This document shows, one piece after another, positions 15,291 to 18,444 of a DNA stretch of 35,731 bases. How positions within the stretch are numbered: position 1 is the first letter of the stretch; each line of letters opens with the position of its first letter. The notes beneath the pieces were generated by a model, which was not told the origin of the DNA, made no database searches, and saw only the letters and a program-made list of their open reading frames with translations. The stretch spans positions 1 through 35,731 of IMG/VR virus record IMGVR_UViG_2713896799_000024. The stretch is one strand, 5' to 3'. Source of the stretch: a virus. Taxonomy: Duplodnaviria > Heunggongvirae > Uroviricota > Caudoviricetes. The position numbers and the translations under genes are program-made.

Positions 15291-15638
15291 TCAACTCACA
15301 GGGATGGTTAACGAAAGTGGCTGGCCGGTGTCGTTGTGCTGGCCGGTTAACGTGACCGTCATTCGCCCGTCAAAGCTGCGCGCCGTGGTGACGGATGACA
15401 GGGTGACGCGGGGTTCCCATTTCAGCACCGCCATGTAACAGGCGACCTTAATCTGCAACTCAAGCGCCGGGGTCTGCGGCTGGTCAATCATTGATGCCAG
15501 CAACGAGCCGTAATCACGACGCATCACCCGTGAGCCGACCGGTGTACGCAGGATATCGCCGATACTCTGGCTGATATGCTCAAGGTCAGTGACAGTCAGG
15601 CCATCACTGCGATTCATTCCGAGATAACGCGCTGTCAT
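15291..15638 (-). CDS. W: Baseplate protein W (gp25-like)
   Basis: 115-aa ORF between V and J. Confidence 0.88.
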   Translation of the reverse strand: MTARYLGMNRSDGLTVTDLEHISQSIGDILRTPVGSRVMRRDYGSLLASMIDQPQTPALELQIKVACYMAVLKWEPRVTLSSVTTARSFDGRMTVTLTGQHNDTGQPLSLTIPVS

Positions 15639-16270
15639 AAAGGACTCCCGGTTGTGCCACCGCTGTCGCCGGGGTGTTTATGGGTATGCAGTACCTTACC
15701 GTTTGATGAGAGTTCACCGCCGGTATGTTCAATGTTGCCGCGCATCGTCCCGCCCTTCTGCACTTCCAGCGTGCCGATAATCAGCCTGTTGGTGCAGACC
15801 ACCTCCGGGGTGTCCAGGGTGACGCGGGTTGATGCTTTCACCATGACCACCGGCACCGTGGCAGTAACAGAATCAGAGGCCGTCACGCTGGCCGTTTTAA
15901 TTCCGCTTACCGTAAGTGCACTGGTTTCGGGTTCATATTCAATCACCGCCCCGTCAGGGAAACGGATATGCAGGGCATCCGCCGACGCAGACGGCGCGGG
16001 GTTATCGCCGGAATAAATCCCCGGCAGAACGAACGCCGTGTCGAGTTCACCGCCCACGGCCAGAATCAGCACCTGTTCCCCCACGGAAGGTGCCCACCAT
16101 GTGCGCGAACGCCCGGCGCGATGGGTCAGCCACTGAAGCCAGTCGGTGCACATGCCGCCGGTCTGCACACGGCAGCGACCGGCGTTAAGGTCGGTTTCGA
16201 CGACAAGGCCGGTACGAATCATGTTGCGCAGTGCGCGCGCGAGTTCCTGAATATTTGCGAGAGTGTTCAT
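15635..16270 (-). CDS. V: Baseplate spike/assembly protein V
   Basis: Translation from MNTLANIQELARALRNMIRTGLVVETD... (211 aa); the upstream in-frame extension to 16315 is rejected because it abuts the late-promoter dyad. No clear SD before either candidate start. Confidence 0.85.
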   Translation of the reverse strand: MNTLANIQELARALRNMIRTGLVVETDLNAGRCRVQTGGMCTDWLQWLTHRAGRSRTWWAPSVGEQVLILAVGGELDTAFVLPGIYSGDNPAPSASADALHIRFPDGAVIEYEPETSALTVSGIKTASVTASDSVTATVPVVMVKASTRVTLDTPEVVCTNRLIIGTLEVQKGGTMRGNIEHTGGELSSNGKVLHTHKHPGDSGGTTGSPL

Positions 16271-16317: not shown

Positions 16318-16335
16318 TGTACTATAGCTGACACA
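16318..16335 (-). promoter_or_regulatory. Candidate Ogr-dependent late promoter dyad (P_V), TGT-N12-ACA
   Basis: tgtactatagctgacacaACAG: perfect TGT-N12-ACA with the ACAACAG core shared with 6675 and 24279; located between the S-V cargo gene and V. Confidence 0.6.
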
Positions 16336-16352
16336 ACAGCATATTTTGTGTG

Positions 16353-17879
16353 TTATTCCTCATTCTCTTTTCCATTTAAGAGCATTCTTTTTTCACATAT
16401 TTTTTCAACAAGCAAGTTTGCAAATGTATCTAGCTGTGCGTATATATCCTCACTAGGATTTATGGTAAAACCTCCAATGCCATTGGCAGTATCAAACATG
16501 CCAACAGGTGCATCACTATATCTTAAAGGAATAACACACCCATCACCAAATCTATCCCTAAATGTATCACCTTCAAATTTGCACCATATTCTAGTTGGAT
16601 AATCCCTACTCAAAAACGGAATTACAAAAACAGACTCACTCCTATAAATTGGAGCAAGATATTGTTCTACATCTTCAGAAAGTATTCTGGCCTGCTCATT
16701 GAAATCATAAAAAACAGATAACTCATTCTCAATCAGCTTTTGATTTAAATATTCCGCATGATTTCTATTAGCTCCAGCAAATGATAAAGCAAAGTCATAT
16801 TTCGACTTAAACTCAAATGATGTGAACCCTATCTTCTCCGCAAGCTTGCTCCATAACAAATTCTTTATATAATAATAAAACTTGGGATCTTCGATTGAAA
16901 TCTCCGTAGTTTCATCATTATAATGAATAACATCCGAAAAATCAGGATTGCTCTCATAATGCGTTTTTAAATGGCCTCGCGTCAGAATTTGCCCAACGCT
17001 ATTACGATGATTAGGATTGTTAATTAAATAACTTGTCAAATTTAAAGAACGCTCATCTTCTTTAGATAACCAATATAAAACGTGGAGATATGGAGCTCTA
17101 CTACCCTTTTTAACCCGCTGGCCTTTCACAAAGCGAACGACTATATCATTGAATCTATAGCTAAGATCCTGAATCACTGTTTCTTTAAGTGATTCATAGC
17201 TAATATTTGTTTCCCGAGGAGATTCTAACTCTTCTGTGATATCAGCCTGTAAACAAGCATTATAAGCCAACATTTGCGCCAGATGAAATGCCCCATCCGA
17301 GTCCTTTACAATATCTTCTTTTACATTTAGTTTGAAATTAAGCGCATTCTCACCTTTTTCTAGCAACTCCCTGACCTTATATTCCGGATTGGACTCAAAT
17401 TTAACAATGGAGATTCGATTTAGTAAATCCGGTGATAAATCAATCAGTGATTTGCCTGTTTTATTTATACCTATAATAATCAACTTAGAATCTAAGGGTT
17501 GTTCATCCGCTAAATTTTTCAGCAAGTCAGATATTTTATGCTTCAACTCATCATCTAACTTATGAAAATCATCAATAATCACCCCACCGAAACCACTCGT
17601 TGTTATTATATTTTCAATCTGGGCTTTATCTTCCTTTTTCCTTCCAGACAATACTTTAAACTCTTTAATTATCCGACTACTGGTCTCGAATTTTAACTTT
17701 TCAATAACCTGTCTTACGCAAGTCGTCTTCCCTATACCTGATGGCCCTTCAATAATTACCCCTCTTCCCGCTGTTCTTATCGACACATAGAGGTGTTTAT
17801 ACTCGTTAGGTTCAACAAAAGTAATTGTCGGGATACCCGAAAGTTTAAAGACATCTTCTAAATACACTGGTTCGCGCAT
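16353..17879 (-). CDS. Cargo gene between S and V: P-loop NTPase (N-terminal) fused to TIR domain (C-terminal), 508 aa; candidate single-gene anti-phage defence protein
   Basis: Walker A GPSGIGKTT, Walker B GGVIIDDFHKLD; C-terminal YDFALSFAGANRNHAEYL...SVFYD...SVFVIPFLSRDYPTRIWCKFEG matches the TIR fold signature, including the WC..E glutamate that is catalytic in TIR NADases. AAGGGA RBS before ATG; visibly AT-rich. Confidence 0.8.
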   Translation of the reverse strand: MREPVYLEDVFKLSGIPTITFVEPNEYKHLYVSIRTAGRGVIIEGPSGIGKTTCVRQVIEKLKFETSSRIIKEFKVLSGRKKEDKAQIENIITTSGFGGVIIDDFHKLDDELKHKISDLLKNLADEQPLDSKLIIIGINKTGKSLIDLSPDLLNRISIVKFESNPEYKVRELLEKGENALNFKLNVKEDIVKDSDGAFHLAQMLAYNACLQADITEELESPRETNISYESLKETVIQDLSYRFNDIVVRFVKGQRVKKGSRAPYLHVLYWLSKEDERSLNLTSYLINNPNHRNSVGQILTRGHLKTHYESNPDFSDVIHYNDETTEISIEDPKFYYYIKNLLWSKLAEKIGFTSFEFKSKYDFALSFAGANRNHAEYLNQKLIENELSVFYDFNEQARILSEDVEQYLAPIYRSESVFVIPFLSRDYPTRIWCKFEGDTFRDRFGDGCVIPLRYSDAPVGMFDTANGIGGFTINPSEDIYAQLDTFANLLVEKICEKRMLLNGKENEE

Positions 17880-17909
17880 ATATTCCCTTTAAGATTAGTG
17901 TAAAAAGAT

Positions 17910-17945
17910 GATCTATAATATTTTTTTTCGCTATTTTCAAGTCAA
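17910..17945 (-). promoter_or_regulatory. Candidate sigma70-like promoter for the ATPase-TIR gene
   Basis: Minus strand reads TTGACT (plus 17940-17945), 16-19 bp spacer, AATATT/TATTAT (plus ~17915-17923), about 35 bp upstream of the ATG; AT-rich context. Confidence 0.4.
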
Positions 17946-17994
17946 CAAGCGATTGCCCCCCTAATGATTTCACCAATGATGATTAACTATGTTT

Positions 17995-18444
17995 TTATTC
18001 TAGATGGTTAGAGATAATCCCTTCAATCATCTGCACATCCTCACCGGTAAAGCCGAGCAGAGGACGCGCCGGATAATCAATTTTCTTACCGTCTTTCCGG
18101 TTTTCTTCCGACAGACCGAACTGATGCACACTGGCGATTTTCGGTGACTTTCCGCCGTAAAACTCCATTGATGCCTGTTCCGGGCTGGCGCGGATATGCA
18201 AAAAACGACTGGTGATAAGTTTCGCAAACATTTTTCGTTTAACGCGACCGGTCTTTTTTCTGGCGCTCTGCTGCTGGCGTGGTGCGTAGGGTGTGCCGTC
18301 CGGGGCTTTCTGTGCCATCACCCGACGCTGCTGACTCTGACGCAGACGTTTCGCCAGTTCGGCACTCAGTCGCCGACGCCCTGACGGTGACAGCGACTCA
18401 ATCAGTCCGGTCAGCCGGTCTTCAAAACGCTTAAACTCATTCAT
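17995..18444 (-). CDS. S: Tail completion protein S
   Basis: 149-aa ORF MNEFKRFEDRLTGLIESL..., overlaps R stop. Confidence 0.88.
   Translation of the reverse strand: MNEFKRFEDRLTGLIESLSPSGRRRLSAELAKRLRQSQQRRVMAQKAPDGTPYAPRQQQSARKKTGRVKRKMFAKLITSRFLHIRASPEQASMEFYGGKSPKIASVHQFGLSEENRKDGKKIDYPARPLLGFTGEDVQMIEGIISNHLE

Follow-up and report, generated by a model that had tools for sequence, protein, structure and literature searches.

Organization of the S–V region

The window, i.e., the whole stretch of 35,731 nucleotides that was analysed, contains a P2-like prophage in which a single gene (hereafter the cargo gene) lies between genes S and V and in the same orientation as both (Table 1). In an E. 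coli prophage of 99.8% identity, S and V are annotated as 'phage virion morphogenesis protein' and 'baseplate assembly protein V', respectively. Compared with an empty S–V site (L002), the inserted cassette replaces the final approximately 8 codons of S and ends around 18 bp past the stop codon of the cargo gene. Since no second open reading frame was found in the insert, there is no partner gene at the locus, in agreement with an earlier note on this DNA that had described a single gene between S and V. Towards V, a TGT-N12-ACA sequence occupies 16335..16318; the spacing from there to the start of V does not permit a confident placement of an Ogr-dependent V promoter.

Table 1. Position of genes, domains and motifs in the S–V region of the window.
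Feature	Position	Strand	Remarks
P2 gene V (baseplate spike)	15635..16270	(-)	annotated in related prophage
Cargo cassette, approximate extent	16338..18015	.	alignment with empty S–V site
508-aa ORF	16353..17879	(-)	AAA+/STAND-like ATPase with lid and winged helix, fused to TIR; complete
Long C-terminal helix, residues 479-507	16359..16445	(-)	poorly conserved, mean column identity 0.36
TIR domain, residues 355-475	16455..16817	(-)	AbTIR/BtTIR type
E436 in W432-C-K-F-E436	16572..16574	(-)	aligned with AbTIR/BtTIR 'WTxYE' Glu
Winged-helix-like domain, residues 256-350	16830..17114	(-)	helices and beta hairpin at 318-329
Helical lid, residues 166-255	17115..17384	(-)	predicted model
N-terminal conserved segment and AAA+ alpha/beta nucleotide-binding base, residues 1-165	17385..17879	(-)	
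R155	17415..17417	(-)	invariant; directly before strand 157-160
Walker B VIIDD, residues 100-104	17568..17582	(-)	invariant D103; conservation of D104 at least 90%
Walker A GPSGIGKT, residues 45-52	17724..17747	(-)	G45-K51 invariant in 80 homologues
AT-rich upstream region, 115 bp	17880..17994	(-)	promoter-like and Shine-Dalgarno-like sites
P2 gene S (tail completion/virion morphogenesis)	17995..18444	(-)	annotated in related prophage

The reading frame of the cargo gene starts with ATG, is intact, and contains GPSGIGKTT, VIIDDFHKLD, YDFALSFAG, SVFYD, and IWCKFEG exactly as quoted before. At its base composition, the chance of 508 codons without a stop is 2e-19, and the longest open frame across 500 shuffles of the 1.68-kb insert comprised 156 codons, compared to 511 observed. 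The copy in another strain differs by 2 synonymous changes and no others. The AT-richness that had been noticed against the GC-rich P2 backbone is clearly present: GC amounts to 0.352 over the entire gene (GC3 0.30) versus about 0.57 in the surroundings, and ranges from 0.33 to 0.38 along the gene, whereas the flanks exhibit values of 0.55-0.62. That such a composition indicates a recent acquisition was rejected, because in four genera the divergence of the gene has kept pace with that of the P2-like backbones, with its GC staying at 0.35-0.36; between genera, the identity of the cargo is 65-77% and that of the backbone proteins R, V, W, and J is 54-82%. Co-divergence with the phage backbone would also fit a function serving the phage itself, and in this respect counts against an immune role.

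The S–V junction ('orf30') belongs to the three moron regions known in P2. The other two moron sites of the same prophage are occupied by an FRG gene, which matches the PADLOC candidate PDC-S15, and by a DUF4238 gene, a validated defence against T7 (PMC9122126). In other E. coli strains, the S–V site itself holds a RelA/SpoT-like protein matching PDC-S33.

Concerning expression signals, the earlier note had attributed to the gene its own ribosome binding site and a sigma70-like promoter. A Shine-Dalgarno-like AAGGGA (17889..17884) is indeed situated 4 nt upstream of the ATG, and TTGACT-17-AATATT is present at 17945..17917; the latter, however, is a consensus match only, and the 8 promoter-like sites of this AT-rich stretch are not above chance (6.3 ± 3.0 in shuffles). 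The -35-like element is partly kept in Erwinia and Rahnella loci, and a conserved promoter is not established, as the upstream regions of five prophages align poorly. Nothing resembling a terminator was detected between S and the cargo gene, such that read-through from the late operon is possible; the search in both flanks yielded nothing convincing, with a 6-bp inverted repeat lacking a T-run just past the stop codon.

Domain composition of the encoded protein

The AlphaFold model of the 508-aa protein (pLDDT 88.3, pTM 0.81) consists of four parts, namely AAA+ base, lid, winged helix, and TIR. The N-terminal P-loop NTPase and the C-terminal TIR domain originally read from motifs are thus both recovered as folds, and profile searches point the same way: the Pfam AAA match lies above its cut-off (29.6 versus 21.2 bits), and TIR_2 (27.6 bits, E = 4.4e-6) stays 0.4 bit below the cut-off of 28, yet is matched by all of the 80 aligned homologues (best 3.7e-11). 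That the protein joins an ORC/Cdc6-like AAA+ module to a C-terminal TIR of the AbTIR/BtTIR type can be regarded as practically certain.

The ATPase part exhibits the AAA+ features of the initiator/clamp-loader type (Walker A, Walker B, alpha/beta base, and helical lid). Foldseek matches the predicted model to ORC, RFC, and RuvB at E of about 1e-7, with 250-260 residues aligning to ORC/Cdc6-type ATPases, and a search of viral folds (BFVD) returned generic clamp-loader ATPases only. The invariant N139 follows strand 131-136 and is sensor-1-like in placement, by position only; likewise by position, and not from an oligomer model, R155 may represent the Box VII arginine finger of AAA+ proteins. 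The winged-helix-like domain is a candidate surface for the sensing of a ligand or of DNA. No TPR, LRR, WD40, or other sensor domain was detected in the protein by Pfam or in the predicted model.

The TIR domain possesses the flavodoxin-like fold and is the best-conserved domain of the family (mean column identity 0.73); the chain ends 30 residues past it. A sequence search of the PDB with the single protein gave nothing significant, and the family profile was needed to reach the structures of BtTIR/AbTIR (E = 4e-7 to 2e-5) and RPS4 (E = 5e-4). The glutamate of the WC..E motif, the retention of which had been proposed earlier, is confirmed as E436, and W432, K434, F435, and E436 are invariant in the 80 homologues. 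The corresponding glutamate in the 'WTxYE' motif of AbTIR is catalytic.

Family members and partner domains

The family comprises at least 1,957 clusters (at 90% identity), the best 120 of which mostly have a length of around 500 aa (362-583 aa) and combine AAA with TIR_2. With a mean column identity of 57% and 77 invariant columns among 80 homologues, the alignment indicates that the family is evidently under purifying selection. The Pfam family 'Novel STAND NTPase 5' (PF25199) is matched at E <= 1e-3 by 45 of the 80 homologues, whereas the cargo protein itself remains below the cut-off (19.3 bits, cut-off 34); one relative (P0196) matches above the cut-off, exactly within the ATPase module. 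Hence, of the suggestion that the architecture is undescribed, the part concerning named systems stands, whereas the class of the ATPase is partly known. Outside Enterobacterales, most of the members examined are solitary chromosomal genes, and they often adjoin transposases.

The ATPase module is found in 1,005 representative clusters. Among the 20 longer relatives sampled, TIR occurs in 18, either N- or C-terminally, a calcineurin-like phosphoesterase in 4, and SIR2 in 2; further partners are NACHT, NB-ARC with TPR, DUF4062, a bacterial death-like domain with EAD7, REC, HTH, and HsdM. As far as sequence annotation goes, these combinations show an ATPase module dedicated to NAD-targeting effectors, with which it is paired in many architectures, and the swapping of predicted partners around it is a modular pattern typical of immune systems.

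Putative function

We consider the cargo gene to be a single-gene anti-phage system acting through a TIR enzyme, with a probability of roughly 0.6, and it is a real, unnamed, and probably functional variant of the theme of NTPase–TIR immune receptors. A role in defence is supported by context, namely by the moron site, by the defence genes residing in the same prophage, and by the swapping of effectors. TIR NADases require oligomerisation, and in plant TNL resistosomes as well as in bacterial Avs/TIR-NLR systems it is NTPase-driven assembly that activates the TIR. In the proposed model, the P2-like prophage would carry, as a moron, a one-protein superinfection-exclusion system, the ATPase–TIR protein of which would be at rest and inactive in the lysogen. 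As infection cue, a phage protein would be conceivable, or else a structure of nucleic acid; as a repeat-type sensor domain is lacking, the cue would be read by the ATPase/winged-helix module itself. It would allow the protein to oligomerise in an ATP-dependent way, to which the invariant R155 would contribute in trans, and this would cluster the TIR domains into the composite active sites needed by TIR NADases; hydrolysis of NAD+ would follow, possibly yielding cyclic ADPR by-products, and the cell under infection would halt growth or die before the phage cycle ends, whereby sister lysogens and the prophage would be protected. This full chain from infection cue to abortive infection is put forward tentatively, its chances being slightly below even.

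It is possible, though unlikely, that the TIR serves as a generator of a signal, i.e., of a cyclic ADPR-type nucleotide that would act Thoeris-like on an unlinked effector, or else on some pathway of the host. AbTIR and BtTIR, which are the closest solved TIRs, make cADPR isomers; the relatives that join TIR and ATPase with SIR2 or a calcineurin-like phosphoesterase could represent signal plus effector in one chain; and the Aeromonas copy adjoins a ThsB-like/PDC-M50 candidate. However, no conserved neighbour gene exists across 12 contexts, the cassette moves as one gene into a phage genome of tight size limits, and SLOG, Macro, SAVED, and STING-like receptor domains were found in the protein neither by Pfam nor by fold searches. 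Quite unlikely, too, appears a role in the phage's own cycle (host takeover, lysis timing, or a counter-defence destroying NAD+ or NAD-derived signals), with expression together with the late genes and not in the lysogen. Of the 1,560 E. coli genomes in which the S–V region is matched, only 2 carry the cargo gene, and most of the sampled S–V sites are empty, so that it is dispensable for the phage; moreover, a tblastn search of 50,697 phage records gave no match to the protein, the family members examined outside Enterobacterales are largely solitary, and the domains joined to the ATPase module are the ones seen in cellular conflict systems. These observations have to be weighed against the shared orientation with S and V without a terminator-like site after S, the short spacing (13-38 bp only) from S to the gene in a pair of related prophages, the identity of the cargo inside the range of the backbone, as in a long-resident phage gene, and the match to a PHROG family of unknown function (phrog_6841, E = 3e-87).

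The invariant glutamate of catalytic type and the AbTIR-like set of motifs argue for an enzyme, and the exchange of TIR for SIR2 effectors points to NAD+ chemistry, which makes it improbable that the gene is a selfish toxin or addiction-type module or a non-immune regulatory ATPase, with the TIR as a protein-interaction or regulatory domain; an antitoxin-like neighbour is absent, too. Either of them would be in line with the REC or HTH domains of some relatives and with several chromosomal contexts outside Enterobacterales that lack an obvious defence island or adjoining defence genes, and TIR domains serve as adaptors in animals, too. Hardly credible, finally, is the idea that a defective prophage carries the gene as a silent or decaying passenger with no present function: the tail-fibre gene of the prophage is broken by an IS21-family element, and in E. 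coli silencing by H-NS is common for AT-rich DNA, but the reading frame is intact with every conserved motif present, the copy in the other strain differs at synonymous sites only, and the family is evidently under purifying selection.

Returning to the anti-phage system as the preferred reading, the cargo gene might found a class of minimal one-protein immune receptors, widespread but as yet without a name, in which an ORC/Cdc6-like AAA+ module lacking a separate sensor domain would itself detect infection and switch on a C-terminal TIR NADase. The gene would be an old resident of orf30 in P2-like phages of Enterobacterales, kept AT-rich (GC about 0.35) while co-diverging over at least four genera, perhaps for silencing of the H-NS type or for dosage control; in this extended form, we consider the proposal slightly less likely to be right than wrong. 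That a cargo gene co-diverging with its phage has stayed AT-rich is in itself a minor evolutionary puzzle. If protection against phages applies, a compact (1.5 kb) and widespread single-gene NTPase–TIR system would join the known repertoire, and it would bear on how infection is sensed by an NTPase–TIR receptor without a repeat-type sensor domain, a question that touches on how the NLR/TNL logic common to plants and animals arose. The S–V junction (orf30), third among the P2 moron sites, would then be established as a defence hotspot; the systematic hotspot survey covered the gpA–gpQ site (PMC9122126).

Comparison with known systems

The earlier statement that the architecture could not be assigned to a named system agrees with the searches of PADLOC v2, of NCBIfam release 20, and of the literature. 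NCBIfam gave nothing specific, with sub-threshold P-loop matches only, and no description was found in the literature on the minimal ATPase–TIR architecture, PDC-S59, the protein accession, or the PHROG id; Serratia SDIC1, a 2026 STAND survey, and a paper on eukaryotic TIR transfer concern different proteins. The PADLOC models for Avs, NLR, TIR-NLR, ThsA, and ThsB do not match the cargo protein, and the matches to PtuA, mad8, and PDC-S01 (P-loop-only noise) and to PDC-S66 (a weak TIR match) were rejected as a basis for an assignment. The sole real match is the 'phage defence candidate' PDC-S59 (E = 1.5e-19; residues 53-337 against positions 110-399 of the 428 of the profile), a weak match that recurs in 10 of 10 relatives tested. 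The two are homologous in ATPase, lid, and winged-helix region, whereas around 110 N-terminal profile positions are missing in the cargo protein and its TIR lies outside the profile; as the score is only 68 bits, the cargo protein is a distant relative of PDC-S59 and not a member.

With the NTPase-centred conflict systems predicted by the Aravind group (PMC8195603), the relatives of the ATPase module have EAD7, bacterial death-like, TIR, SIR2, and calcineurin domains in common; these systems are computational predictions, and the minimal ATPase–TIR form was not found described among them. Thoeris likewise employs a bacterial TIR in anti-phage immunity, but ThsB possesses no ATPase fusion and a separate ThsA effector is needed, which is absent from the cargo locus. 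The TIR motifs are closest to those of AbTIR/BtTIR, although AbTIR lacks an NTPase and begins with a coiled coil. SpbK of Bacillus ICEBs1 is, equally to the cargo protein, a single protein of a mobile element with a C-terminal TIR effector, and it is reported to be a NADase acting via abortive infection (PMC12847820); it differs by having no ATPase and by being activated through direct binding of a phage protein.

The organization is comparable to that of the TIR-NLR and TIR-Avs STAND systems, in which a P-loop oligomerisation NTPase, a winged helix, and a TIR effector are united in one protein, as they appear to be in the cargo protein, and of which the TIR-NLR of the P4 hotspot (Rousset et al. 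2022, PMC9122126) also resides on a mobile element of the P2/P4 family. Identity with the latter was rejected, because it has the order TIR-STAND-TPR and occupies another hotspot (PMC9122126). The tripartite STAND order (N-terminal effector, NTPase, C-terminal sensor) does not apply to the cargo protein, in which the TIR is C-terminal, such that the order is reversed, TPR, LRR, or WD40 sensors are absent, and the total length is only 508 aa. The same logic would be expected, i.e., sensing, NTP-dependent assembly, TIR NADase activity, and abortive infection.

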